Source: an uncultured Acidobacteriota bacterium (lineage in GTDB: Bacteria > Acidobacteriota > Vicinamibacteria > Vicinamibacterales > UBA2999). From it: 64,000 nucleotides of DNA. Numbering within the stretch: position 1 is the stretch's first letter; every line of letters starts with the position of its first letter. Location: positions 414,515-478,514 of the forward strand of contig CAVVTC010000005.1 in assembly GCA_963751025.1 (NCBI GenBank), given 5' to 3'. Of this stretch, positions 24,109 through 64,000 are shown in pieces. A program made the position numbers and the translations under genes. Below the pieces are notes generated by a model. The model was given only the letters and a program-made list of their open reading frames with translations. It did no database searches and was not told the DNA's origin.

Positions 24109-27100
24109 CTACACGGGCGTGACGGGGTTCGGGAGCGGGAGCTTCGATCGGATCCAGCTGAAGCCGCGAACCACGACGCGCTTCTCGCGCGCGTCCTCGA
24201 ACAGCGAGTAGGCGACCGGCGTCACGAGCAGCGTCAGCACCAGCACCAGCGTCTGGCCGCCGATGACGACGAAGCCGATCGCGTGATTGGTGGCCGAGCC
24301 GACACCGCTCGTCAGCACCAGCGGGATCATGCCGGCGACGAACGCCAGCGTCGTCATCAGAATCGGCCGCAGCCGATCGCGGCACGCCTGGACGATCGCG
24401 TCGACGCGTGTCGAGCCCGGCCTCGCGCAGCTGGTTGGCGTGATCGATCTGCAGGATCGAGTTCTTCTTCACGACCCCGAACAGCACCAGCATGCCGAGC
24501 GCCGAGAAGATGTTCAGCGACTGGCCGAAGATCACGATCGACAGCAGCGCGAACGGCAGCGTCAGCGGCAGCGACAGCAGGATCGTCACCGGGTGCAGCC
24601 ACGACTCGAACTGCGCCGCCAGCACGAGATACATGAAGATCAGCGACAGCGCGAGCGCCTGCAGGAACGCGCTGGCCGTGCGATTCAGCTCGCGCGAGCG
24701 CCCGGCGAAGCCGGTGCGGTACTCGGACCCGAGACCGAGCTGCGCCGCCGCCGTCGGCCATCTGCTCCTGCGCCGCGGCCTGCGACGTGCCGGGCAGCAT
24801 GTTCGCGCCCACCGTCACCTGCCGCTGGCGATTCAGCCGCCGGATGTCGGCCGGCGCCTCGCCGTGCACGAACGACGCGATGTTCTCGAGCGCCACGCTG
24901 CCCAGGCGCGACGACGGGCACGGTCAGCTTGCGCAATCGCGGCCTCCGAGCCGCGATCGGTCTCCTCGGCGCGCAGGTGCACCTCGGTACTGCTCGCCGC
25001 CTTCGTTGTAGGTCGTCACCTGATCGCCGCCGACCAGCAGTCGCAGCGCGTCGGCGGCATCGGACACCTGCACGCCGAGGTCGGCGGCCTTCGGCCGATC
25101 GAGGCGCACCGACATCTCCGGCTTGCCGACGCGCAGCGACGTGTCCACGTCCACGAGGCCGGGGATCGCGCGGGTGCAGTTCGGCCAGCGAGCTGCTCGC
25201 CCGCTCGAGCGCGTTCGAAGGTCGCGGCCCCTGCATCACGAACTCGACGTCGCCCTGACCGCCGCCGCCGCCGCCACCGCCGCCGCCGATGCCGGGCACC
25301 TGCAGCGTCGTGCGCATCCCCGGCGCGGCTGTCTTCGGCAGGAGTCTCGTTGCGGATCTGCTCCATGATCTCGAACATGTCGCGGTCCCGCTCGCCGAGC
25401 GGCTTCAGCTTCACGTACAGAGACGCCGTGTTCAGCGTGCCTGCCGAGTCACCGGCCACGGTAACCATCGTGTAGACCACTTCAGGAATCTGCCGGATGG
25501 CCGCCGACACGCGGTTGGCCATCACCTCGGTCGCCTCGAGGCTCGTGCCTTCGGGCGCGCGCAGGCTGACGTCGAACTCGGACTGATCGTCCTGCGGCGT
25601 GAAGTTGACGTTGACGATCCGGAACATCGGCACGCTCGAGAACAGCACCAGCACCGCGAGCGCCGGCGATGATGCCGCGATGCGCCATCGACCACTCGAG
25701 CATCCGCGTGTAGACGCGATCGAGCGGCCCGAAGATCTTCGAGTGCTTCGAGTCGTGGACGTGATGATCCTCGTCCTCGGTCCGCGGCTTCACCTTCAGC
25801 CAGCGCGCGCACATCATCGGCGTCAGCGTGAAGCTGACGAGCAGCGACACCATCACCGCGAACGCCATCGTCAGGCCGAAGCTCCGCATGAAGCGGCCGA
25901 CCATGCCGCTCATGAAGCCGACCGGCGCGAAGATCGCCACCAGCGACAGCGTGGTGGCCATGACCGCGAGCCCGATCTCCCTGGTCCCCTCGATCGCCGC
26001 CTGCATCGGCGGCATGCCCTTCTCCTCGATGAACCGGTAGATGTTCTCGAGCACGACAATCGCGTCGTCGATGACGATGCCGACCGAGAGCGTCAGCGCG
26101 AGCATCGTCAGCATGTTGAGCGTGAAGCCGCATGTACCAGAGCAGCGCGAACGTGGCGATGATCGACGTCGGAATCGAGATCGCCGCGATGATCGTCGAG
26201 CGGAGGTTGCCGAGGAACAGCAGGACCACGAACGCGGCCAGCAGCGAGCCGACGATCAGGTGCTCCTGGACGCTGCGGATCGACGCCTCGATGAACTCCG
26301 CCTCGTCGCGGACGATGCGCAGCTGATAGCCCGGCGGCAGCGCCGCCTGGATGTCCGCGAGCCGCTCCTTGACGTTGTTGACGACCTCGACGGTGTTGGT
26401 GCCGGACTGCTTGCGGATCTGCAGCAGCACCGTCGGATCGCCGTTGATGCTGGCGAGCGTCGTGGCCTCGGCCACGCCGTCGTCGACGCGCGCCGACGTC
26501 GTCGACCTGTACCGGGTGGCCGTCCACCTGGCGCACGACCAGGTCGCCGAACTCCTCGGGCGTCTCGACGCGGCCGCGCGTGCGCATCGTGATCGACTGC
26601 GCGCCCTCGTCGATGCGGCCGCCGGGGATGTCGGCGTTCTGCGACTGCAGCGTCCGCGCCACGTCGTTGACGGTCAGGTTGTAGGCGCGCAGCCGATCGG
26701 CGTCCACCCAGACGTTGATCTGCCGTTTGCGGCCGCCGAGCACCAGCACCTGGCCGACGCCGTCGGCGCTCTCGAGACGCCGGCGCAGCACCTTGTCGGT
26801 GTACTCGGTGACTTCGCGGATCGGCTTCTTCGCCGTCACCGCGATCGTGAGGATCGGCGACGCGTCGGGGTCCTGCTTCTCGATCGTCGGCTGGGTGATC
26901 GTGCGCGGCAGCAGCGGCAGGATGCGGTTGATGCGGTCGCGCACTTCCTGCGCCGCGACGTCGGCGTTCTTCTCGAGGCGGAAGGTCACGACGACCTGCG
27001 AGATGCCCTCGGCGGAGTTCGAGCTGAGCTGATCGATGCCGCTGATCGTGTTGACCGCTTCCTCGATCTTGTCGGTGACCTCGCTCTCCACCTGCTCGGG

Positions 27101-28533: not shown

Positions 28534-29171
28534 TTGTGCGAGGCCGAAGGCCGCGCGTGCCGCGGCGCGCCGGCGCGTATGCCCGCGATCGTCGTCTCGA
28601 TCGCATCGCGAACGAGCGCGTCGGCATCTTCGGGCGTGGTCCGGTTCGACACGCGCAGCGCGGCGATGCCGAGGATCGGCGCAAACAGCAGTCGCAGTGC
28701 AACCTCGGCGTGCGTCGTCGCCGGGAACACACCTTCGGCGATGCAGCGTTCGACCTGCGACAGCGCCCGATTCCGCATCTCCGAAATGAACGAGAAGCGC
28801 TCGTACTCGCGGCTCACGCGCGGGACGTGGCGGTCGAGAAACACGAGCGCGAAGTACTGCGGCTGCTCCTTGCTGAACTCGGAGAGACGCCACAGCGTCG
28901 CGCGCACGTCGTCCAGCGCATCGGCGCTCGGCTCGTCGCTGACCTCACTGCCGCCGATCTGACGGAAGCCTTCCTCGGCGAGCGCGAAGAAGATCTCGTC
29001 CTTCGACGGGAAGTAGCTGTAGATCGCGGCCGGGCTGTATTCGACCTTGGCGGCGATGGCTCGGATGGAAACCTGGGTGTAGCCGTCGGCGATGAAGAGC
29101 TCGAGGGCGGCGTCGAGGATGGCGCGACGCGTGCTTTCACGCGCCTGCTGCTGGCGTTCTTCGCGACTCAT
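28344..29171 (-). CDS. TetR/AcrR-family transcriptional regulator; 3' end uncertain
   Basis: The HTH region reads RRAILDAALELFIADGYTQVSIRAIAAKVEYSPAAIYSYFPSKDEIF. The ORF runs about 60 codons past a normal TetR length into the MFP start, so the stop was probably lost to an indel. Confidence 0.8.
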   Translation of the reverse strand: MSREERQQQARESTRRAILDAALELFIADGYTQVSIRAIAAKVEYSPAAIYSYFPSKDEIFFALAEEGFRQIGGSEVSDEPSADALDDVRATLWRLSEFSKEQPQYFALVFLDRHVPRVSREYERFSFISEMRNRALSQVERCIAEGVFPATTHAEVALRLLFAPILGIAALRVSNRTTPEDADALVRDAIETTIAGIRAGAPRHARPSASHNAQGSMPQCSTSGGGIAGGRGARRGTASRGAARRKVNPRRRQASPRRCACRWRPRRSSRSRGF

Positions 29172-43688: not shown

Positions 43689-44481
43689 GTGATCCGTCTC
43701 TTCGTTTCACTGGCCGCGGCCAGCGCGCTGCTCGTCGACACCTCTCCTCGCTCAGACGCCCGTGGCGAAAGCCGAGTTCCGCGAACCGCGGACGGCAAGC
43801 CTGATCTCTCCGGTGTGTGGGTCGGCGGCGGATTCGCGCTGCTGTTCGGAGACGCCGAGCTCGAGGCGATTCGCAAGTACGACGCGGCGATGGGACGCAA
43901 GCCGCTGCCCCCGCCCGAACCTCCACCCTACAAGCCCGAGGCCGAGAAGAAGCGGCAGGAGTATCTCGCGCGCCGGGGCATGGACGATCCGATGGCGCGA
44001 TGCCTGCTGTCAGGCGTGCCGCGCATCACCGTGAGGCCGCTGCCCTTCGAGATCATCCAGCAGCCGCATCGAGTCGTCATCCTCTACGAGGTCCACCACG
44101 CCTTCCGCTTCATTCCCGACCGACGGCCGCGGCCATCCCGACGACATCGAGCCGTCGTATCTCGGCGATTCAGTCGGACGATGGGAGGGCGACACGCTCG
44201 TGGTGGACGTCACCGGCTTCAACACCAACACCTGGCTCGTCGGCGTCGGCACATTCCACAGCGAGAAGCTGCGCGTCACCGAGCGTTACACGCGCGACAC
44301 GCACGACACGATCATCTACGAAGCGACGATGGAAGACCCGGAGGTGCTGACGAAGCCGTGGAAGCAGTACGCCACGCTGAGGCTGAGGCCCGGCGAGCGC
44401 ATCCGTGAGTACGAGTGCATCGAGAACAACGAAGACCTTCAGCGCTTCGAGAAGCTGTTGCAGACCGAGTTCAAGAAGTAG
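43689..44481 (+). pseudogene. Conserved hypothetical secreted protein (usual partner of DUF6152), one frame break near 44118
   Basis: GTG at 43689 with SD aaggag. The sequence reads ...TADGKPDLSGVW...RCLLSGVPRITVRPLPFEIIQQPHRVVILYEVHHAFRFIP | TDGRGHPDDIEPSYLGDSVGRWEGDTLVVDVTGFNTNTWL...EYECIENNEDLQRF. Confidence 0.55.
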
Positions 44482-54906: not shown

Positions 54907-57588
54907 TCAGTCGGCTCGAAGCGCGATCAGCGGATCGACGGTCGTCGCACGACGGGCGGGCACGAACGAGGCGACCAGACAAATCGCCAGCAGCAGCCCG
55001 GCTACGGCTGCATACGTGACGGGATCGAACGGGCTGACGCCCACCAGGAGTCCCTTGAGCGAACTGCGCGAGACCCGCTGCGAGCACGACCCCGATGCCG
55101 ATGCCGATCACCGCGAACCGTCCGCCGCGTGCGAGCACGTCGCGAATGATGTCGCCGGCTCGTGCGCCGAGCGCCATGCGCACACCAATCTCCTGCGTCC
55201 GCTGGCCGACGTGATACGCAATCATCCCGTAAAGCCCGATCGACGCGAGCAGCACGCCCATGCTTCCGAACAGGCTGGTCAGGAACGCGCCGATCCTGAA
55301 GATGAAGAACGCGCTCTCCGTTATCGAGATGCTCCATCATCGGACGGACGTCGTAGACCGCGACCTCAGGATCAGCCTGTGCAAGGGCTTGTCGAACCGC
55401 CCGCGCCAGATCGATGGGTGAGCCGGACGTTCTGACCGCGACGGTCGCCGACACCGGAGACGTTTGCGCGACCGGCCGGAAGATCGCACCGCGCGGCGGT
55501 TCGCCGACGTTCTGATACTTGCCGTTCTGCACAACGCCGACGACCTCGACCCTGTCGCCATCGGCAATGCAGCGTCCGACCGAGTGGGCTGTGACCCGGC
55601 CAGAACTCCTGGGCCAGTGTCTGGTTGATGATGACCACCGGCGTGCTGCCGGCTCGATCGCGCGCATCGAACACTCGTCCCTCGATGAGCCGCACTCGTG
55701 CGGTCTCGAAGTACTCGGGACTGATGTCGGCCTCGGCCGCCATGGGCGGCCGCCAGTCGGGATCGGACGGTCGCGGCTCGGGAATCACTTCGGCGGCTTC
55801 GCCGATGATGCCGAGTGGCGGAAATTGAATCCACGCCACCTGCGCCACGCCAGGAATCGCGACGATGCGATCGTGCGCGGCCGCATAGAACGCCAGACGC
55901 TTCTCGAAGTCGTAACCCTGGAGTGCCGGAGCGGTCGTCGCGAGCAGCATCCCTTCGGGCTCGAAGCCCAGGTCGATCTGGCGCGCCCTGTCGAGACTGC
56001 GGACGAACAGACCGCCGCTGACGAGCAGCGTCAGCGACAGCGCCACTTGGACAACGACCAGCGCGTTCCGCATCTTGCCGCCGGATCTGTCAGCGCCACC
56101 GCGGGCACCGCTCTTGAGACGTCGTCCCGAGATCGGCGCGGTACGCCGCCAGCGCCGGTGCAAGTCCGGCGAACGACTCCCGCCCCACCGGCCATCACCA
56201 GCATCGGCCACGAGCACGCGGACATCGACGCGAAAGTCAGGATCGAACGCGATGACCGAGGTGACGGTCGAGAAGACGTTGCCCAGCGCGGTCGTCGCCG
56301 CCGTCACGACGGGAATCGCCACGATGCCACCAAGCAGTGCCAGCGTCACGCCCTCGGTCAGAAACTGTCTGGCGATTCGGCCGCGTCGCGCGCCGAGTGC
56401 GGCGCGCAGCGCGACCTCGCGTCCGCGGCTGGCGGCTCGCGCCATCAGTAGATTGGCGACGTTCGCACTGGTGATCAGCACGAGCACGACCGGCGAGTGC
56501 GGCCAGCATCGTCGTGGCGAGGCGCAAGAATCCGCCGAGCGGTGGGTTCGGACGCGCATGCGTCTCCGGGATGACGCGCAGCGAGATGTTCTTGTGCGTC
56601 TCCGGATAATCGCGCGCCAGCCGTGCGGCGCGAACGTTGAGCGCCGCGCGGGCCTGCTCGAGCGAGACGCCGCGCTTCAGACGTCCCAGCACCGAGAAGG
56701 TGCGCACCGAGCGATCGTCGAACGTCTGTCACGTCGGGCCGCCAGCTCATAAAGGCGTCAATCATCCACACCGGCACATATACCGAGACACGCAGCAACG
56801 ACTCGGTGCCGCGAAACGCCGACGATGAGACGCCAATGATCGTGAACGGCTGGCGGCCCAGCCGTATCGTGCGGCCGATAACGGATGGATCGCCGCCGAA
56901 GCGCGACTGCCAGTACGCGTAGGACAGAACCAGGACCGGAGCGTCGCCGGGCGCGCGGCCTTCATTCGGCTGAATGAGTCGTCCCGCCGCAGGCTGCACG
57001 CCCAGCATCGAGAAATAGTTGTCCGTGACCAGTTCGAGGGTGATGCGCTCAGAGGCCCCGTCCACGCTCAGAGAGGCGGCGCGCGGCACGTAGCCGATCG
57101 CGTCCGACAGCACTGAGGCTTCGGCCCGATAGTCCAGGAAGTCCTCGGTAGGACACGTAGTGGTTCAATCCGTCCTGATGGCTGATCGAGATGAGCTGTT
57201 CGGGGTGGTCAGCGGCCAGCGGTCTGAACATGACCGCATTGAGCACGGCGACCATACTGGTCATGGCGCTCATCCCGATAGCCAGCGTGAGCACGGCCGA
57301 TGCCGCGAAGACTGGCGCGCGACGAAGGGAGCGCAGCGCGTAGCCGACGTCCTGCTTCAGGATCGCCGCGTGCTCGCGCGGCGCCGTGGTGAGGACGTCG
57401 CGAGCCACGTCGAGCCAGAGTCGGAGCAGCGCGCCGACGCCTCCTTCGCGTCGCGCCTCGCGGTGCTGCGCGCGAAGCGTCTGCTCTATATCCCGTCCGT
57501 GATCGGCCCGGAAGTCGAACGGAAAGACGCGCAGGACGACGCGAAAGATTCGATCGGTCCACGAGGCCGGACGCCGGGGGGCGCTCAC
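54907..57588 (-). pseudogene. ADOP-family orphan permease 3, at least 8 frame breaks
   Basis: GTG start (GTGA overlap with PadR). The sequence reads ...RVFPFDFRADHGRDIEQTL..., LRRAPVFAASAVLTLAIGMSAMTSMVAVLNAV, SANVANLLMARAASRGREVALRAALGARRGRI, LYGMIAYHVGQRTQEIGVRMALGARAGDI. The hand-translated end is ...VDPLIALRAD-stop at 54907. Confidence 0.85.
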
Positions 57589-57953
57589 ACCGACCTCGGG
57601 CGCGGCACGAGCTTTTTCTCCCGCGCCATCTCGACGATCGACTCGAGCCGCTCGATCTCCGCGGCGGCGACTTTGCGCCCGAGCGGCGTCAGACGGTAGT
57701 ACCGACGACGCTCATCGTCGAGCGAGATGTCCGGCCGTTCGTCGGTCTCGACGATCAGGCCGTCGGCCTCGGCACGGCGAATCAGCGCATACAACGTTCC
57801 TGCGCTGAGGCGCACGGTCTCGTCCGTACGCCGCGCGATCTCCTTGATGATCGCGTAGCCGTGCTTGTCGCCGTCGGCCAGCGCCACGAGCGTGTGCAGC
57901 ATCGGTGGGGTCAGCGGCAGGAATGCCTCGACTCGGTTGCGGGATGACGTCAC
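57585..57953 (-). CDS. PadR-family transcriptional regulator
   Basis: Intact 122 aa: MLHTLVALADGDKHGYAIIKEIARRTDETVRLSAGTLYALIRRAEADGLIVE...RRYYRLTPLGRKV. GTG start with SD gagga. Confidence 0.9.
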   Translation of the reverse strand: MTSSRNRVEAFLPLTPPMLHTLVALADGDKHGYAIIKEIARRTDETVRLSAGTLYALIRRAEADGLIVETDERPDISLDDERRRYYRLTPLGRKVAAAEIERLESIVEMAREKKLVPRPRSV

Positions 57954-57991
57954 GACTTGTCCTCTCGTGGCAGCGGACCTTCAGACACCTC

Positions 57992-58017
57992 GTAGAGGCG
58001 GGCCTTCAGGCCCGCCT
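57992..58017. repeat. REP-like GC hairpin (family copy 4)
   Basis: gtagaggcgggcc-ttca-ggcccgcct. A half-copy, gcggaccttcag, lies just upstream at 57973-57984. Confidence 0.6.
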
Positions 58018-58132
58018 AGGCCGTACTGTCGGCACACTATAGCGCACGAGCGATATAGACGGAAACGACCCGGCAAGAGTTGCCGAGGGGACATCTCAAG
58101 GGGTTCCAGACGGGGTCCGACGCCTGCTGAAC

Positions 58133-58306
58133 ATGCAGCACGCGAATATCCGCGCGCTGCGGCGAAGCTCCGGTGTTACCGGCGTGCAGGCCGTCAACAC
58201 GACGTTCATGCGCGAGAACGTCGTGACCCTGCGCGTGCTCGAGAACGAGCTGGGCGCGAAGAACGCCTGGCTGCTCCCCGTGCCGTCCTACTACGTGCGC
58301 TACTGA
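58133..58306 (+). CDS. Possible 57-aa ORF or 3' remnant of a larger gene, ending in an OMP-like beta-signal (…PSYYVRY)
   Basis: MQHANIRALRRSSGVTGVQAVNTTFMRENVVTLRVLENELGAKNAWLLPVPSYYVRY. By hand count about 53 of 57 codons end in G/C, which is coding-like for this genome. No SD was seen, and it overlaps the assembled ku tail. Confidence 0.35.
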   Translation: MQHANIRALRRSSGVTGVQAVNTTFMRENVVTLRVLENELGAKNAWLLPVPSYYVRY

Positions 58307-59105
58307 CCGCGCGGCGGCCACCGCCGCGACGGCCGCTCGATGTGTCGAGGCTCTGACGCAGCCGCTCCATCAGATCGACCACCTTGGCCTCGCGAGGCGC
58401 CTCTTCCGACACCAGATCGGCCTGCTTGCCCTTCATCTTCGCCTTGATGACCCGCATCAGGTTGTCGCGGTAGTCGTCGGTGTACTTCTCCGGCTTCCAC
58501 TCGTCGGCCAGGCTCTCGACGAGCGACGTCGCCATGTCGAGCTCCTTCTTCTTGACCGGTACTCGCTTCGGGAGCTTGAGCGTCGAGGTGTCTACCAGTT
58601 CGTCGGCAAAACGAAGCGTGGACAGCACCAGCGCCTCGTCCACGACTTCGACCGCAGCGAGGTGCTGGACCTCGCGCATGATGAACTTGGCGATGCCGAT
58701 GCGGCCCGACTCGCGGATCGCCTCGCGCAACAATCCGTACGCCACATCACCGCCTTTACCAGGAGTGAGGTAGTACGGCGTGTCGAAGAAACGATCGTCG
58801 ATGGCTGACGCCTCGACGAAGTCGAGAATATCGATGCGCCTGGTCTTCTCGAGCGCGGCGGCGGTGAAGTCCTCCTTCGTGAGCACCACGAAGCGGCCCT
58901 TCTCGTACTCGTAGCCCTTCACCAGGTCGCCCCACGCAACGGCCTCCCCTTCCTTCTGACACACGCGCTCGTAGCTGATCGGCGATCGATCCTTCGCGTG
59001 GAGCAGCCGGAAGTGCGGACGATGGTCGCGCACAGCCGTGTGGACTTCGACGGGAATATTCACGAGGCCGAACGACAGCGCGCCGGTCCAGATTCCTCGG
59101 GCCAT
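58206..59105 (-). CDS. ku: Non-homologous end-joining protein Ku; 3' end uncertain
   Basis: MARGIWTGALSFGLVNIPVEVHTAV...YERVCQKEGEAV...KGYEYEKGRFVVLTKEDF...FDTPYYLTPGKGG...AYGLLREAIRESGRIGIAKFIMR. The R-rich tail after about 58310 has low third-position GC, and an alternative stop exists at 58300 one frame over. Confidence 0.85.
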   Translation of the reverse strand: MARGIWTGALSFGLVNIPVEVHTAVRDHRPHFRLLHAKDRSPISYERVCQKEGEAVAWGDLVKGYEYEKGRFVVLTKEDFTAAALEKTRRIDILDFVEASAIDDRFFDTPYYLTPGKGGDVAYGLLREAIRESGRIGIAKFIMREVQHLAAVEVVDEALVLSTLRFADELVDTSTLKLPKRVPVKKKELDMATSLVESLADEWKPEKYTDDYRDNLMRVIKAKMKGKQADLVSEEAPREAKVVDLMERLRQSLDTSSGRRGGGRRAVSSARSRTARGAARRSSRPARSRARAGSRRSRA

Positions 59106-59116
59106 GTCAGATGAAA

Positions 59117-59132
59117 AGCAAGCGGAGCGCCA
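59117..59132 (-). promoter_or_regulatory. Sigma-54-type -24/-12 candidate for ku; predicts an essentially leaderless mRNA
   Basis: The minus strand reads TGGCgCtccgcTTGCT (10 of 12 consensus positions). The C of the -12 GC is at 59118, so the TSS is predicted at about 59106, 1 nt before the ku ATG (59105). No SD is present. Confidence 0.4.
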
Positions 59133-59157
59133 CGACGCGAATGCTGAGCCACGTCCA

Positions 59158-59173
59158 TGGCACGACGCGTGCT
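59158..59173 (+). promoter_or_regulatory. Sigma-54-type -24/-12 candidate for csbD
   Basis: TGGCACGacgcgTGCT (11 of 12 consensus positions). The predicted TSS is about 59184, and the 27-nt 5' UTR contains the SD gggaggaagg. Confidence 0.45.
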
Positions 59174-59210
59174 CCCTCAGCGGCATACCTCGGGAGGAAG
59201 GAAGAACACA

Positions 59211-59432
59211 ATGAACGAAGACACCCTCAAGGGACAATGGATGCAACTGAAGGGCAAGATTCGCGAACAGTGGGGCAAGCTCACTGACGATGACGTGGAC
59301 CAGATTCAGGGAAAGTCCGAACAGCTGATCGGAAAGCTCCAGAATCGCTACGGCATCGCGCGCGATGAGGCTCAGCGGCAGGTGGACGCGTGGGTCACGA
59401 ACACGCACATCGAGCCGAGCCCGTCCCGCTAG
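59211..59432 (+). CDS. csbD: CsbD-family general stress protein
   Basis: MNEDTLKGQWMQLKGKIREQWGKLTDDDVDQIQGKSEQLIGKLQNRYGIARDEAQRQVDAW. Confidence 0.85.
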   Translation: MNEDTLKGQWMQLKGKIREQWGKLTDDDVDQIQGKSEQLIGKLQNRYGIARDEAQRQVDAWVTNTHIEPSPSR

Positions 59433-59447
59433 CGCTCAAAATGGAAA

Positions 59448-59482
59448 CGCTCCGATGGACCACATTCGGGTCCATCGGAGCG
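59448..59482. terminator. Bidirectional intrinsic-terminator-like hairpin
   Basis: Perfect 14-bp stem cgctccgatggacc / ggtccatcggagcg with the 7-nt loop acattcg, between convergent csbD and the lipoprotein gene. Confidence 0.7.
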
Positions 59483-59528
59483 GTAGGTAAGCCTCGTCAC
59501 ACATCAAGCAGCCGACGTCACATCCAAC

Positions 59529-60188
59529 TCAACCGACGCTGACCGGCGTGTCCATCCGGATGCGCACGATCGAGCCCGCAGGCAGGGAGATGTCCTTGCC
59601 GTCGGTCGCCGCGATCGCGCCGCCGGCGCCGATCGCCGCGCCGATGACCGCGCCCTTCAGACCGCCGATGATGCCGCCGACCACGCCGCCGACACCGGCG
59701 CCGACGCCAGCGGTCCCGACCTCATCGCGAATGCCGCGGCTCTCGAAGATCTGCGTCGCGGTTGCGCGGATGTCGTGCTGGCGCCCGCGCACACGGATAC
59801 GATCGAACGCCAGGGTCAGCGCGCCATCGCGATCGACGCGGCCCGCTTTGTCTACATCGACGACCACACCTTGCACGACGGAACCCGCCGGCACGAGCAC
59901 GCGGCCATCCTGAATCAGGTCCACGACGGTGGTGGCTTCGAACCGCTGCTCGACCTTCGACGTCTCGGAGCTGAGACTGGTGCCCAATCGCACGTCCATT
60001 TCCTGCCCGACAGGGACCACGCCACGGGCGGCGCTCGGCACGGTCTCCGGCGCGCTCGGCGCCGTCGACGTGACGTCCGATGTGCGTGGCGGCGGCGTCG
60101 CGGTGTTGAGGTCGCGCGTCGCGCAGGCATATCCACTGGCAAACAGGACCGGGAGCATCGCTGCTGCAAAGGTGAGCGATCTCTTCAT
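59529..60188 (-). CDS. Glycine-zipper-containing lipoprotein
   Basis: Intact 219 aa with the signal and Cys MKRSLTFAAAMLPVLFASGYAC. The C-terminal glycine zipper reads GTAGVGAGVGGVVGGIIGGLKGAVIGAAIGAGGAIA. Confidence 0.7.
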   Translation of the reverse strand: MKRSLTFAAAMLPVLFASGYACATRDLNTATPPPRTSDVTSTAPSAPETVPSAARGVVPVGQEMDVRLGTSLSSETSKVEQRFEATTVVDLIQDGRVLVPAGSVVQGVVVDVDKAGRVDRDGALTLAFDRIRVRGRQHDIRATATQIFESRGIRDEVGTAGVGAGVGGVVGGIIGGLKGAVIGAAIGAGGAIAATDGKDISLPAGSIVRIRMDTPVSVG

Positions 60189-60233
60189 GAGTTCATGCCT
60201 CCTGCCTGCCAGTGGTGCAATGGATATGCCCCG

Positions 60234-60389
60234 TCATACCACGCGTCGTCCCTGGATCACCCTCAGCACCAGAATCACAAGCGCCACCACGAGCAGAATG
60301 TGAATGAGTCCGCCCACTGTGTACGAGCTAACCATTCCCAGCAGCCAGAGGATAACGAGCACAACGATCAGTGTCTCGAGCATTGCCAT
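60234..60389 (-). CDS. lmo0937-family small membrane protein (51 aa; below the ORF-track cutoff)
   Basis: Codon-by-codon hand translation gives MAMLETLIVVLVILWLLGMVSSYTVGGLIHILLVVALVILVLRVIQGRRVV-stop. The SD ggagg lies 3 nt upstream of the ATG. Confidence 0.75.
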   Translation of the reverse strand: MAMLETLIVVLVILWLLGMVSSYTVGGLIHILLVVALVILVLRVIQGRRVV

Positions 60390-60427
60390 GACCTCCACGG
60401 CCGACGAGCCGGCCTGCGGAATGGCAG

Positions 60428-60443
60428 AGCACCTTCCGTACCA
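60428..60443 (-). promoter_or_regulatory. Sigma-54-type -24/-12 candidate for the lmo0937-family / glycine-zipper pair
   Basis: The minus strand reads TGGtACGgaaggTGCT (10 of 12 consensus positions). The predicted TSS is about 60417, 28 nt before the ATG. Confidence 0.4.
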
Positions 60444-60491
60444 GATCGAGCTCGGCCACGAGCTCAGCGGCCCTTTGATGTGCCGGCACGA

Positions 60492-61602
60492 TCAGTCCTC
60501 GCTGGCGCTCCGGACCTTGACGAGATCGGGTTTCCGGATTCCTGGCCTGGTGATGCGCTGGCGGCCGCTGGGGCGCTGACGGGAGCTGAACGGTGGGATC
60601 TGCACGACCTTGCCGGTATCCGCGGATTCATAGAGCGCCTGCACGATGCGGACGTCCTGCAGTCCCTCTTCGCCGGACGGTTCCGGATCGCGCCCCTTCA
60701 GGATGCAGTCGGAGAAGTAGAGCAGCTCCGGCGCGAACTGATCGCGCTTGCCGATGCGGCGCCTGGTCGTCTTGCCATTGGTCGTGAGCTCGTAGGCCAG
60801 GCCCTCGGCGTATTCGTACGCCGGGTTCACATGCAGGTGTCCTTTCGTTCCCACGATTCGGTAAGAGGCGACATCATCGGCGTTGAAACTGGTGACAAAG
60901 GCGGCGATGCGCTCGCCGTCGAACCGCAGCACCGCTGCGGTGGACTCGTCGATCTCTTTCACCCTCGCCGCTCCGCTGTTGACCGACAGCGCCATCACCT
61001 CTTTGGGCTCCGCCCGGAACAGTCCTCGCGCCGCGTTGATGCAGTACACGCCGATGTCGTACAGCGTGCCGCCTCCGAGCTCACGCTTCGTCCTGATGTC
61101 TCCAGGACGGACCGTCATGGAGAACGACGAGTTGAAGAACTTCGGATCGCCGATCCGGCCGCGACGAACCAGATCGATGGCGTTCAGGTTGATCTCCTCG
61201 AAATGCAGCCGATACGCCACCATGAGCCTGACGCGATGCTCGCGACAGGCCTCGATCATCCGTTCGCACTCCTCCGCCGTGACGGCCAGCGGTTTCTCGC
61301 AGAGCACGTGCACGCCAGCGTTGGCGGCGCGGATCGCATACTCGGCGTGGAGCGAGTTCGGAAGCGCGATGTACACCGCATCGACGTCTTCCAGGCAGTC
61401 GTCGTACGTGCTCGTAGGAGTACGCCGTGACCTTGTACTTCTTCGACAGCGCCCGCCGCTTCGCCGGGTCGTCGCTGACAATCGCCGCCAGCACCGAGTT
61501 GCGCCGCGCGTGCGCGAATGCCGGCAGCACCGCGACCTGAGCGATGTGACCCAGCCCGACTACCCCGTAGCGGACAGCCTTCCGCCTCGCGCGCTTCGCC
61601 AT
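60492..61602 (-). pseudogene. Gfo/Idh/MocA-family oxidoreductase, one frame break near 61410
   Basis: MAKRARRKAVRYGVVGLGHIAQVAVLPAF...KVTAYSYE | TYDDCLEDVDAVYIALPNSLHAEYAIRAANAGVHVLCEKPLAVT... Confidence 0.8.
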
Positions 61603-61665
61603 GCATGCCTCCGGCGTGGATTCGGTGCAAGCCGCATGCTGGTCCGCAGCAGCCCAGCGCTACGC

Positions 61666-61681
61666 AGGCGTCGGTCTTGCA
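61666..61681 (+). promoter_or_regulatory. Weaker sigma-54-type -24/-12 candidate for the yciE-like gene
   Basis: aGGCgtcggtcTTGCA (8 of 12 consensus positions, correct spacing). The predicted TSS is about 61692. Confidence 0.3.
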
Positions 61682-61693
61682 CAGCATCCCGCG

Positions 61694-61729
61694 ACGTCCC
61701 GCGCACTGCTCGAGCACGCGCGGGGACGT
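61694..61729 (+). promoter_or_regulatory. 36-nt near-palindrome in the predicted yciE-like 5' UTR
   Basis: acgtcccgcgcac-TGCTCGAGCA-cgcgcggggacgt. The arms are complementary apart from one extra g. It ends 5 nt before the SD aaggag. Confidence 0.35.
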
Positions 61730-61748
61730 TCATAAGGAGATTTGCACC

Positions 61749-62333
61749 ATGGCTGAAATGGGGACCTTGCACGATGCGTTTCTGGACGAGCTCCGGGACA
61801 CCTATGACGCGGAGAAACAGATCACGAAGGCGCTACCGAAAATGGTGAAAGCGGCGGCCTCACCTGCCCTGCGCGACGCACTCGAGGCGCATCTCGAGGA
61901 AACGCAGCAGCAGGTCGAACGGCTGGAGCAGGTATTCGCCTCGCTCGACGAGAAAGCGACGGGCAAGCATTGCGCGGGGATGGCGGGCATCATCGAGGAA
62001 GGCCAGTCGATCCTCGAGGAGGACTTCGACGAGACGACGACGGACGCGTGCCTCATCGCGGCGGCGCAGCGCGTCGAGCACTACGAGATGGCCGCCTACG
62101 GCACGCTGGTCTCGTGGGCTCGCGTCATGGGGCACACCGAGGCCGCCGATCTGCTGGAGGAGACGCTCGACGAGGAAAAGGCCGCGGATGCGACGCTCTC
62201 GTCGATCGCCAAAGGCGGGATCAATCAGGCGGCAGCCGATGCCGCCGATGAGGGCGAGGGCGACGCGGAAGCGGATGACGAGGAAGAGGAAGAGATCACC
62301 GCGGGGCCGTCCAAGCGCACCTCACGCGACTGA
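61749..62333 (+). CDS. DUF892/YciE-like ferritin-like stress protein with acidic C-terminal tail
   Basis: MAEMGTLHDAFLDELRDTYDAEKQITKALPKMVKAA...LEEHLEETQQQVERLEQVF...CAGMAGIIEEG...RVEHYEMAAYGTL; the tail reads DEGEGDAEADDEEEEE. Confidence 0.8.
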   Translation: MAEMGTLHDAFLDELRDTYDAEKQITKALPKMVKAAASPALRDALEAHLEETQQQVERLEQVFASLDEKATGKHCAGMAGIIEEGQSILEEDFDETTTDACLIAAAQRVEHYEMAAYGTLVSWARVMGHTEAADLLEETLDEEKAADATLSSIAKGGINQAAADAADEGEGDAEADDEEEEEITAGPSKRTSRD

Positions 62334-62335
62334 GG

Positions 62336-64000
62336 TCACTTCACCGTCACGATTTCGACGTCACCTTCGCGGCGAATGATGGTGACGCCGACGTCATGGG
62401 GGTGGCGCTCGACCTGCAGATCGACGCGCGCGTCGCCGATCGCCAGGTCGGTCAGGCGGATCCAGTCGATCGACTCCGGCAGCCGGCCCCGTGAGAACGA
62501 GATCCGGCGCGCGGGCGCGTCGATCTGCACGCCGAGGGACGCGGCGAGCATGAGGAAGACGGCCCCGGCAGCCCAGGCCTGCGGCGCGCAGGCAACCGGA
62601 TACAGCGTCGGCTCGCGACTGCGGCGAGTGAACCCGCAAATCAGTTCCGGGAGTCGATGCAGATCGACGGCCTCGCTCAACTCGAGTGTGGCGTTGAGAA
62701 TCCGCATCGCCGCGCCGGTGAAGCCATACCGCGACGCGCCGGCCGCCACCAGCGCGTTGTCGTGCGGCCAGATCGAGCCGTTGTGATAGGACTGCGGGTT
62801 GTATCGCCGCTCGCCCGCGGCCACCGTCCGGACGCCCCAGCCATTGAACGACGCATCCGCCATCAGCGTGTCGCACACGCGCTTCGCGCGTTCGGCTGCG
62901 ACGATCCCCGAGAACAGGCCATGGCCCGGGTTGGAGGTGCGCACGCGGCACGGGCGGCGGCGGCCGTCGAGCGCCAGCGCGTACGTGTCGATCTCCTCGC
63001 ACCAGAAGGTCAGCTCGAAGCGCTCGCGCAGCCGCTCGGCGCGCGTCGACCAGTCGTCGACCGCGCGTTTGTCGTCGCGCAGCGCAGCCAGTCGCGCGGC
63101 GCCATCCCACGCAGCGTAGGCATAGCCCTGCACCTCGCACAGCGCGATCGGACCCTCGGCCATCGTCCCATCGGCGTGGAAGATCGAGTCGTGCGAGTCC
63201 TTCCATCCCTGGTTGATCAGGCCTGCATCGTTCCTTCGCGCGTAGTCGATGAAGCCGTCCGCGTCTGGATCGCCGCTCGTTCGCATCCAGTCGAGAGCGG
63301 CCACGATGTTCGGCCAGATCCCGTCGATGAACTCGCGATCGCCGGTGCGCTGATAGTAGGCGTGGGCGAGCATGACGAACAGCGGCGTCGCATCGCAGCT
63401 GCCGTAATAGCGGCCGAACGGCACCTCGCCGAGCGCGGCCATTTCGCCGCCCCGCATCTCGTGAAGGATCTTGCCCGGCTGGGCATCCTGCGCGTCGTTC
63501 TCCGAGGTCGCCTGCGTCTCGGCGAGAAAGGCCAGCACGCCGCGCGCGACCGCCGGATTGACCCACAGCAGCTCGAATGCGGTGATGAGACCGTCGCGGC
63601 CGAACGGCGTGCTGAACCACGGGATGCCGGCATAGGGATACGCGCCGTGCGGCGTGTCGGTCAGCATGATCTGCAGATCGGCGTGCGACCGATCGAGCCA
63701 CCGGTTGAACATCGGGCTCGAGCTGAGCACGCGGCAGCACGAGGCGTTCTGCGTGGCGCGACGCGTCCTGGTCTGGACCAGCGCGTGATCGAAGGCCTTG
63801 GCGACCTGACCTGAGGCCGGCGCCGCCCCGTCGGTCTCGTAGGCCACGGTCAACACGATGGTCGCGGTTTCCTTCGGCTCGAGTCGCAGCACGAAGACGG
63901 CGCGCCCGGCGTCAACCTTGTCGGGCGGACGGCTCCACCGCACTCTCGAGCGGCGCTCGCGGTCGTCGATGCCGCGGTAGCCCATGACGTACTCGTCGCC
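62336..64000 (-). CDS. Amylo-alpha-1,6-glucosidase / glycogen debranching enzyme family protein (C-terminal about 555 codons; 5' end outside the window)
   Basis: Open and in frame to 64000: GIPWFSTPFGRDGLITAFE...GKILHEMRGGEMA...YGSCDATPLF...INQGWKDSHDSIFHADG...CEVQGYAY...NPQSYHNGSIWPHDNAL. Confidence 0.85.
   Translation of the reverse strand, partial: GDEYVMGYRGIDDRERRSRVRWSRPPDKVDAGRAVFVLRLEPKETATIVLTVAYETDGAAPASGQVAKAFDHALVQTRTRRATQNASCCRVLSSSPMFNRWLDRSHADLQIMLTDTPHGAYPYAGIPWFSTPFGRDGLITAFELLWVNPAVARGVLAFLAETQATSENDAQDAQPGKILHEMRGGEMAALGEVPFGRYYGSCDATPLFVMLAHAYYQRTGDREFIDGIWPNIVAALDWMRTSGDPDADGFIDYARRNDAGLINQGWKDSHDSIFHADGTMAEGPIALCEVQGYAYAAWDGAARLAALRDDKRAVDDWSTRAERLRERFELTFWCEEIDTYALALDGRRRPCRVRTSNPGHGLFSGIVAAERAKRVCDTLMADASFNGWGVRTVAAGERRYNPQSYHNGSIWPHDNALVAAGASRYGFTGAAMRILNATLELSEAVDLHRLPELICGFTRRSREPTLYPVACAPQAWAAGAVFLMLAASLGVQIDAPARRISFSRGRLPESIDWIRLTDLAIGDARVDLQVERHPHDVGVTIIRREGDVEIVTVK

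Follow-up and report, generated by a model that had tools for sequence, protein, structure and literature searches.

The 105-nucleotide (nt) spacer that separates the divergent genes ku and csbD of an uncultured Acidobacteriota bacterium (positions 59106-59210 of the 64-kilobase (kb) stretch of DNA analysed here, hereafter the window) probably holds, to judge from comparative sequence analysis, two divergent sigma-54-class promoters that belong to an island of stress genes, with the ku promoter placed so close to its gene that the ku transcript would be leaderless or nearly so. The ku gene (59105->58206, minus strand) begins MARGIWTGALSFGLVNIPV and encodes a protein of 299 residues with the N-terminus MARGIWTG, of which the MARxIW portion is conserved among homologs, and a match to Pfam Ku (E 1e-45). 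The csbD gene (59211-59432, plus strand) encodes 73 residues that match Pfam CsbD (E 2e-19). By its Ku homologs the window belongs to Acidobacteriota of Vicinamibacteria type. The best Ku matches from genomes are 70-72% identical, and relatives from soil metagenomes are closer, at 74-98% identity among the proteins listed. The contig closest to the window (locus L178) is 95-98% identical at the DNA level, and no exact-sequence match to the window Ku is on record.

Both motifs in the spacer follow the consensus TGGCACG-N4-TTGCW, the csbD motif at 11 and the ku motif at 10 of the 12 specified positions, and in both the GG and GC elements stand in exact GG-N10-GC spacing. With the C of the GC element taken as -12, the csbD motif (TGGCACGACGCGTGCT, 59158-59173, plus strand; GG at 59159-59160, GC at 59171-59172) predicts a +1 near 59184 and a 27-nt leader that includes GGGAGGAAGG at 59192-59201. 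The ku motif (TGGCGCTCCGCTTGCT, 59132-59117, minus strand; GG at 59131-59130, GC at 59119-59118) predicts a +1 near 59106, one nt ahead of the A of the ATG (59105), and the 12 nt between the -12 C and the ATG, TTTTCATCTGAC, are without a Shine-Dalgarno sequence.

Evidence that these motifs are promoters comes from other genomes. The sample comprised 160 ku loci and another 18 gathered around close homologs of Ku or CsbD (individual loci are given as L with a number), among which a related set of 88 loci encodes Ku at least 51% identical to that of the window and derives from Acidobacteriota, Gemmatimonadota and soil metagenomes (labels, where present, are Vicinamibacteria, other Acidobacteriota, Gemmatimonadaceae and Longimicrobiaceae), and a distant set of 61 loci, mostly labelled Verrucomicrobiota or Eremiobacterota, encodes more distant Ku. 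When the 150 nt preceding ku were searched for GG-N8-TTGC on the strand of the gene, 67 of the 88 related loci proved to have the motif, as compared to about 3 expected from a background of 0.038 per 150 nt in those loci. When the GG was shifted by 1-4 nt either way (N6-N9 and N11-N14 in place of N10 between the -24 GG and the -12 GC), matches were found in 4-17 of the 88 loci, such that enrichment is confined to N10; the opposite strand yielded matches in 4 of 88, and the distant loci in 4 of 61.

A matrix was built from 69 distinct ku sites, all from other genomes and with the window's own site excluded, the sites having been chosen by requiring GG and GC and retained when they agreed with the consensus at 8 or more of its 12 positions. 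This matrix follows TGGCACG-N4-TTGCW at positions that were not directly required: C at -23 in 59/69 sites (86%), a pyrimidine at -21 in 60/69, T at -15 in 61/69 (88%), T at -14 in 69/69 (100%), and A or T at -11 in 56/69 (81%). A comparison of matrix match rates between related and distant loci was set aside as uninformative, the base composition differing and the ku training sites being included. Because the two blocks of the ku motif are only 4-5 variable bases apart, and because the motif is asymmetric and directional, its geometry is that of a -24/-12 promoter and is unfit for a sigma-70-family -35/-10 promoter or a palindromic operator.

Alignment of six orthologous ku-csbD spacers reveals the same pattern at finer scale, the -24/-12 blocks of both promoters being invariant and the 4-5 nt between the blocks variable. 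The remaining invariant columns correspond to the csbD start codon and Shine-Dalgarno region, the ku ATG, and a short block between the two promoters, GCTGAGCCACGT (59143-59154, plus strand; consensus CTGAnCCGTG), which lies between the two -24 elements in all six orthologs and is possibly a regulator site. A direct repeat, CACGACGCG at 59131 and 59161, was also considered as a regulator site, and was rejected when found not to be conserved in two of the relatives (L081 and L082).

The csbD promoter can be followed away from ku. The divergent arrangement of csbD and ku is found only in the closest relatives, namely three of the 160 ku loci (L023, L081 and L082) and, among the further loci, L161-L169, L174-L176 and L178. 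All csbD loci examined retain the element GGCAYG-N4-GTGCT, among them seven in which csbD is divergent from ku (six close orthologs and L023), L164-L169 and L174-L177, and also L170-L173, where csbD lies in an unrelated context. The csbD sites read TGGCAYG-NNNC-GTGCT, with variation confined to the spacer bases. In csbD homologs of 75% identity with an unrelated neighbourhood, consisting of hydrolase or ferritin genes upstream and a DUF6496 gene and a lipid-kinase gene downstream, the site is CGGCAYGTGGCGTGCT, its -12 C being separated from the start codon by 44-45 nt, and another csbD lineage has GGGCACGACCCGTGCT at 45 nt before the start. Since the motif is kept by csbD copies that are not next to ku, it belongs to csbD itself rather than to the ku spacer.

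The position of the motif relative to the ku start codon separates the loci into two classes. In a short class of 32 loci, mostly unlabelled metagenome contigs, of Vicinamibacteria type where labelled, and including the close relatives of the window, the distance between the -12 C and the start codon is 12-17 nt (13 nt in 16 loci, 14 nt in 8), the start codon is ATG in 32/32, and a Shine-Dalgarno-like sequence is present in 1/32. In a long class of 39 loci, made up of Gemmatimonadota (by the labelled loci) and some Acidobacteriota, the distance is 20-108 nt, the start codons are 35 ATG and 4 GTG, and 29/39 have a Shine-Dalgarno-like sequence. The window ku, at 12 nt, falls into the short class, and the five other genes of the island all possess GGAGG-type Shine-Dalgarno sequences. 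The textbook rule for +1 places the A of the ku ATG at +2 to +4, and the geometry fits a ku mRNA that would be leaderless or have a leader of at most 3 nt. Public gene calls in four loci (L161, L163, L164 and L178) begin ku 28-140 nt inside the true gene, giving products of 246-252 residues or TTG starts at LSFGLV. The miscalls are a systematic error of annotation and fit a leaderless start, since a start that has no Shine-Dalgarno sequence is one that gene callers would be expected to miss. The sequence-only reading of this stretch had proposed back-to-back sigma-54-type promoters in the 105-nt spacer, a 27-nt csbD leader with gggaggaagg, and a leaderless ku. Both motifs, with their exact GG-N10-GC spacing, were confirmed, and the predicted +1 at 59184 would give the 27-nt csbD leader; the promoters gain support from conservation in the six spacers, in the 67 ku loci and before csbD elsewhere; and the leaderless ku, as a prediction only, is supported by the 32 short-class loci, all with ATG and 31 without a Shine-Dalgarno sequence.

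The ku-csbD pair is part of a conserved island with, by its sequence, at least six predicted sigma-54-type promoters, at least four of them beyond the pair and within the next 2.6 kb. The gene order is ku, csbD, a glycine-zipper lipoprotein, DUF5670, a GFO oxidoreductase and DUF892, and in relatives it runs on through genes for a glycosidase, a GT4 glycosyltransferase and, in divergent orientation, a small protein, of which the last two again have sites. When the window was scanned on both strands (128 kb of strand) with the matrix of ku sites, the top three matches were the ku site (15.8 bits), the DUF892 site (15.8) and the glycine-zipper site (14.4), all in island spacers and all facing the adjacent gene. 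Gene-facing positions in island spacers amount to about 0.5% of the window by an arithmetic estimate, and it is therefore very unlikely that three of three matches would fall there by chance.

The further sites of the island are of the same kind as those at ku and csbD. The candidate glycine-zipper promoter (GGGCATATCCATTGCA, 60216-60231, matrix match 60215-60231, minus strand) has its -12 C 28 nt before the gene and AGGAGG in the leader, and is conserved in 6/6 orthologs at 28-30 nt; the gene itself (59529-60188, minus strand) encodes 219 residues with a lipoprotein-like N-terminus and a weak match, under the curated cut-off, to Pfam Gly-zipper_YMGG. For DUF5670, a small membrane protein (60234-60389, minus strand; Pfam DUF5670, E 4e-14), the predicted promoter is TGGTACGGAAGGTGCT (60443-60428, minus strand), with the -12 C 39 nt before the gene and TGGTACG-N4-[GC]TGCT kept in 6/6 orthologs. 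The sigma-54-like GFO site (CAGCATGCGGCTTGCA, 61641-61626, minus strand; -12 C 24 nt before the gene) is likewise conserved in 6/6 orthologs and precedes a GFO/IDH/MocA oxidoreductase gene (60492-61602, minus strand) that has Pfam matches and is frameshifted at about 61400-61480, where it consists of two overlapping reading frames, with in-frame stop codons if read straight through. The DUF892 site (AGGCGTCGGTCTTGCA, 61666-61681, matrix match 61666-61682, plus strand) has its -12 C 68 nt before the gene for a YciE/YciF-like ferritin-like stress protein (61749-62333, plus strand; Pfam DUF892, E 4.5e-61); among orthologs the match is clear only in L161, with weaker candidates in L081 and L082, and DUF892 genes in other contexts (L108 and L110) also have the site. 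Thus all six window promoters recur in orthologs as fixed blocks with variable spacers, four of them in all six loci, with the support for DUF892 thinner. The GFO and DUF892 promoters are also back-to-back, with 24 nt between the 16-mers versus 25 nt for ku and csbD; a hand count among orthologs gave gaps of 23-32 nt, so the distance is not strictly constrained.

High-scoring sites in related loci also precede DUF892, PRC-barrel, DUF2934 (twice), Holin-X, DUF6496, SurE and GT4 genes. By their predicted products the genes behind such sites form a coherent stress set, with a shared promoter motif standing before many genes for typical stress proteins, as expected of a general-stress regulon, and a set of this kind resembles the SigB, RpoS and EcfG general-stress regulons.

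A few further observations concern the leaders of island genes. The glycine-zipper (60194-60220) and GFO (61604-61630) leaders have a common 27-nt layout and are 74% identical, with the -12 TTGCA followed after about 15 nt by GGAGGCATG, which suggests a duplicated or commonly constrained promoter-leader module. A 36-nt imperfect palindrome (ACGTCCCGCGCACTGCTCGAGCACGCGCGGGGACGT, 61694-61729) occupies the beginning of the 5' leader predicted for DUF892, directly after the predicted +1, and could form a stabilising or regulatory 5' stem-loop. The GT4 gene, situated past the end of the window, is preceded in two relatives (L161 3350-3366 and L178 3328-3343) by a sigma-54-like site whose -12 C is only 17 nt from the called ATG, and is perhaps a second nearly leaderless gene.

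A number of observations weigh against the interpretation of these motifs as sigma-54 promoters. Judged by shuffled or Markov sequences, the consensus with at most two mismatches is no more frequent in the window than expected (10 versus 9.5), and the ku-site matrix at a threshold of 14 bits or more gives three matches versus 0.8 expected (p ~0.06); the comparison of motif frequency with background that the sequence-only reading had proposed is thus, taken alone, not favourable. The core TGGC-N8-TGCW is found 10 times versus 3.9 expected, a count reached by 1 of 100 shuffles. Matrix scores are not fully unbiased, given the selection of sites by GG and GC, a concern that the spacing and strand controls address, and the GFO site has AG where GG is near-invariant, with GG at that position in one ortholog (L163). 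Motif matches also occur within coding regions, as at 43993, which is regarded as chance. Another, TGGCGCGACGCGTGCT at 29120-29135 (plus strand), is one base off the csbD promoter; on a crude frame map based on G+C content at third codon positions (GC3) it apparently falls within a coding-like frame, in antisense orientation, and it too is regarded as chance. The match at 26646 and other window matches also appear to fall in coding sequence. Raw motif matches in the window are not significant by themselves, and the case therefore rests on position and comparative data: the excess over chance lies in the position and orientation of the motif and in its conservation in other genomes.

The sigma-54 machinery itself proved elusive in the sequences searched. 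A search for the RpoN box in the window and in all fetched loci returned no match, and a search of six-frame translations for GAFTGA and Walker-A motifs revealed no enhancer-binding protein encoded in the window. The same activator search over all loci gave convincing matches only in L005, which is related, and L074, which is distant. L005, a locus of Vicinamibacterales, encodes (39-1088) a predicted 349-residue enhancer-binding protein 3 kb upstream of ku, with an OmpA-family gene between them; the protein consists of Sigma54_activat (E 4e-67), AAA+ and HTH_8 domains without a sensory domain, and is PspF-like. The predicted Sigma54_activat protein of L005 is indirect evidence that the order Vicinamibacterales uses sigma-54; it does not link this protein to the promoters described here. 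No activator site shared among the six window promoters was found by comparison of 9-mers, nor any convincing column conservation within 100 nt upstream of 28 short-class ku promoters. The 105-nt spacer is too short to accommodate a classical enhancer at -80 to -150 without overlap of the partner promoter or of coding sequence, and the island spacers are compact in general (105, 45 and 146 nt), leaving little room for an activator site. The enhancer-binding protein could be encoded elsewhere. Speculatively, an activator may bind inside the neighbouring genes or act without binding DNA, as some known enhancer-binding proteins do. In the Gemmatimonadota loci (L020-L037 and L119-L137) a strongly conserved block, TCACAAA-N5-7-TTTCCACA, abuts the motif about 20-50 nt ahead of the ku -24 element, immediately past the terminator of the preceding gene. 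The impression is that this block partly resembles a site for integration host factor.

Three alternatives can be set beside these observations. The simplest, that the matches arise by chance in GC-rich DNA and have no function, would account for the unremarkable window counts and for near-identical matches within coding sequence, as at 29120 and 43993. It is extremely unlikely in view of the recurrence of the motif, with place, strand and spacing unchanged, in 67 of 88 related loci as compared to an expectation of about 3, loci that are not near-identical copies of one another (Ku identity 51-90%), and in view of the invariant blocks with variable spacers and the location of the top three window matches in gene-facing island spacers. 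Somewhat less remote, and still improbable, is that an ordinary transcription factor uses the motif as its operator, or that a sigma factor of the sigma-70 family or of the extracytoplasmic function (ECF) type recognises it. Such an element would need neither the rpoN gene that the window and fetched loci failed to yield, nor the activator gene that the window failed to yield, nor an enhancer site; the Gemmatimonadota block abutting the motif could be a regulator site, and the csbD site contains an imperfect palindrome, GCACG-N3-CGTGC. An operator, however, is hard to reconcile with an asymmetric and strictly directional motif (present on the ku strand in 67 loci and on the other strand in 4), another sigma factor is incompatible with blocks 4-5 variable bases apart in place of a 16-18 nt -35/-10 spacer, and both are opposed by the match to TGGCAC-N5-TTGCW at positions not directly required and by the constant location of the motif upstream of a start codon, with either a Shine-Dalgarno sequence after it or a fixed 12-17 nt to the ATG. 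The alternative with a modest chance of being correct, though still an unlikely one, accepts sigma-54-dependent promoters and disputes the leaderless ku, supposing a very short leader, translated by an initiation route independent of a Shine-Dalgarno sequence, or an extra upstream promoter that provides a leadered mRNA. The modal distance of 13-14 nt, combined with a start 12 nt past the C, puts the A of the ATG at +3 or +4, that is, a leader of 2-3 nt and not a strictly leaderless mRNA; sigma-54 start-site choice varies by a few nt, and genes without Shine-Dalgarno sequences are known in many phyla. Against this stand the tight 12-17 nt distance, the exclusive use of ATG in the short class while GTG is tolerated at distant motifs, the absence of a Shine-Dalgarno sequence in 31 of 32 loci where the five other island genes all have one of GGAGG type, and, for an upstream promoter, the failure of a scan of 58000-60500 to find any sigma-70-like promoter.

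If the spacer does contain two divergent sigma-54 promoters, we infer from the motifs that sigma-54 RNA polymerase would bind the -24 GG and -12 GC elements and wait as a closed, silent complex, until an ATP-dependent enhancer-binding protein, answering a stress or dormancy signal, opened the complexes and switched on the whole island gene set together. Transcription of ku would start at the AUG itself or no more than 1-3 nt from it, giving a leaderless mRNA translated without a Shine-Dalgarno sequence, and the csbD transcript would have its 27-nt leader with a strong Shine-Dalgarno sequence. A broader proposal, offered tentatively and quite possibly wrong, is that in Vicinamibacteria-type Acidobacteriota and in Gemmatimonadota sigma-54 and one stress-sensing activator make up a master switch of general stress and dormancy that directly drives ku, csbD, DUF892 and related genes, a counterpart of SigB, RpoS and EcfG that includes leaderless transcripts from -24/-12 promoters.

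Sigma-54 control of ku, if true, would be a previously undescribed way to switch on end-joining repair, in bacteria that are abundant in soil, hard to culture and understudied for stress control. Expression of ku and of the whole stress set would be blocked strictly until an ATP-dependent activator fired, an off-state well matched to genes that cells need only when they are not growing or are desiccated. There would then be a specific regulator still to look for, and GGC-N7-TTGC would provide a sequence handle for predicting the regulon in metagenomes. A sigma-54 promoter fixed 12-17 nt from the AUG would, moreover, be an unusual case of a leaderless mRNA from a -24/-12 promoter.

Other features of the region bear less directly on the promoters. 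A perfect 14-base-pair hairpin (59448-59482) lies between the convergent csbD and glycine-zipper genes and is the terminator for the glycine-zipper gene, since the T-run is on the minus strand only; it possibly also terminates csbD. No LigD gene was found within the window, and an Rfam scan of 57500-62500 gave no credible RNA family. Three genes are split into overlapping frames, namely the GFO gene (60492-61602), a MacB/FtsX-type permease gene next to PadR (55372-57588) and a gene at 43689-44481; the near-identical contig L178 also has split GT4 and GFO genes, which suggests that the splits are indel errors of long-read assembly and not true pseudogenes. Downstream of ku, an 87-codon open frame (58043-58306, plus strand; coding-like GC3 of 0.82) shares about 100 nt with the 3' end of ku, ends in ...PVPSYYVRY, and looks like a C-terminal remnant of an outer-membrane barrel protein. 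The gap between ku and PadR is 252 nt in the window versus about 70 nt in L165-L168 and 49 nt in L164 and L169.

With respect to what is already described, the promoter class is known, and the regulon content and the promoter-to-start-codon arrangement would be new. The remark of the sequence-only reading that it knew of no description of sigma-54 control of non-homologous end joining (NHEJ) and CsbD-type stress genes was borne out, in that full-text searches of the literature covered did not turn up any paper that connects sigma-54 or RpoN with Ku or NHEJ. Searches of the same kind gave no paper on a general stress response in Acidobacteria and none that connects sigma-54 with such a response in Acidobacteria or Vicinamibacteria, and the searched literature held nothing on how the general stress response is organised in Acidobacteriota or Gemmatimonadota. 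A 2025 cross-phylum survey of sigma-54 regulons leaves Acidobacteria, Gemmatimonadota, CsbD and end joining unmentioned.

The candidate promoters share with classical sigma-54 promoters (glnAp2, nifH and pspA) GG and GC elements 10 nt apart, a C after the GG, TT before the GC, an A or T after the GC, and a strand-specific position upstream of genes. They differ in that neither an activator site nor an activator gene was found in the window, in that one of them sits 12 nt from a start codon, so that no 5' untranslated region is possible, and in their targets, which are end-joining repair and general-stress proteins rather than the nitrogen, flagellar and transport genes of classical sigma-54. 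Sigma-54 control of damage or stress modules has a precedent in enterobacteria, where the rtcBA RNA-repair operon (RtcR/sigma-54) and the phage-shock regulon (PspF/sigma-54) are kept tightly off until an activator fires. The short 349-residue AAA+/HTH_8 enhancer-binding protein near ku in L005 resembles PspF, and is a first candidate for the activator of the promoters described here. In contrast to the rtcBA and phage-shock systems, the genes here are those for Ku, CsbD, DUF892 and others, with many separate promoters in place of one operon.

The predicted ku transcript has its nearest counterpart in the leaderless mRNAs of Sinorhizobium meliloti, where 171 leaderless starts, all AUG, are associated with sigma-70-type promoters (PMC3616915). 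Both have AUG as the obligatory start and lack a Shine-Dalgarno sequence, and in both a promoter element stands a constant short distance from the start codon, the difference being that at ku this element is the -12 box of a sigma-54-type promoter. The literature searched did not yield any account of a conserved leaderless gene driven by sigma-54.

In Bacillus subtilis csbD is SigB-dependent, and the same two gene families, ku and csbD, are under stress or dormancy sigma factors there, as proposed here; SigB and SigG, unlike sigma-54, are sigma-70-family factors that use other promoters, in another phylum. Regulation of NHEJ genes is scarcely known, as a 2018-19 paper (Dupuy et al.) states, the cases found being EcfG in alpha-Proteobacteria and SigG in B. 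subtilis, where ykoVU (ku-ligD) is SigG-dependent (PMC6379672).

The closest known parallel is the EcfG-ku connection of alpha-Proteobacteria, in which, as proposed here, ku is wired to general-stress genes through an alternative sigma factor. The gene families of the EcfG regulon overlap those of the island set, including CsbD, DUF892, PRC-barrel and glycine-zipper proteins. EcfG (RpoE2) controls ku3-ku4 and ligD4 in S. meliloti, and EcfG motifs precede ku in about 90% of ku-bearing alpha-Proteobacteria (Dupuy et al., PMC6379672). EcfG is an ECF factor of the sigma-70 family that recognises GGAAC-N16-17-CGTT and needs no ATPase activator, as compared to the -24/-12 geometry seen here. The regulatory logic would be shared between the two systems, and the class of sigma factor different.

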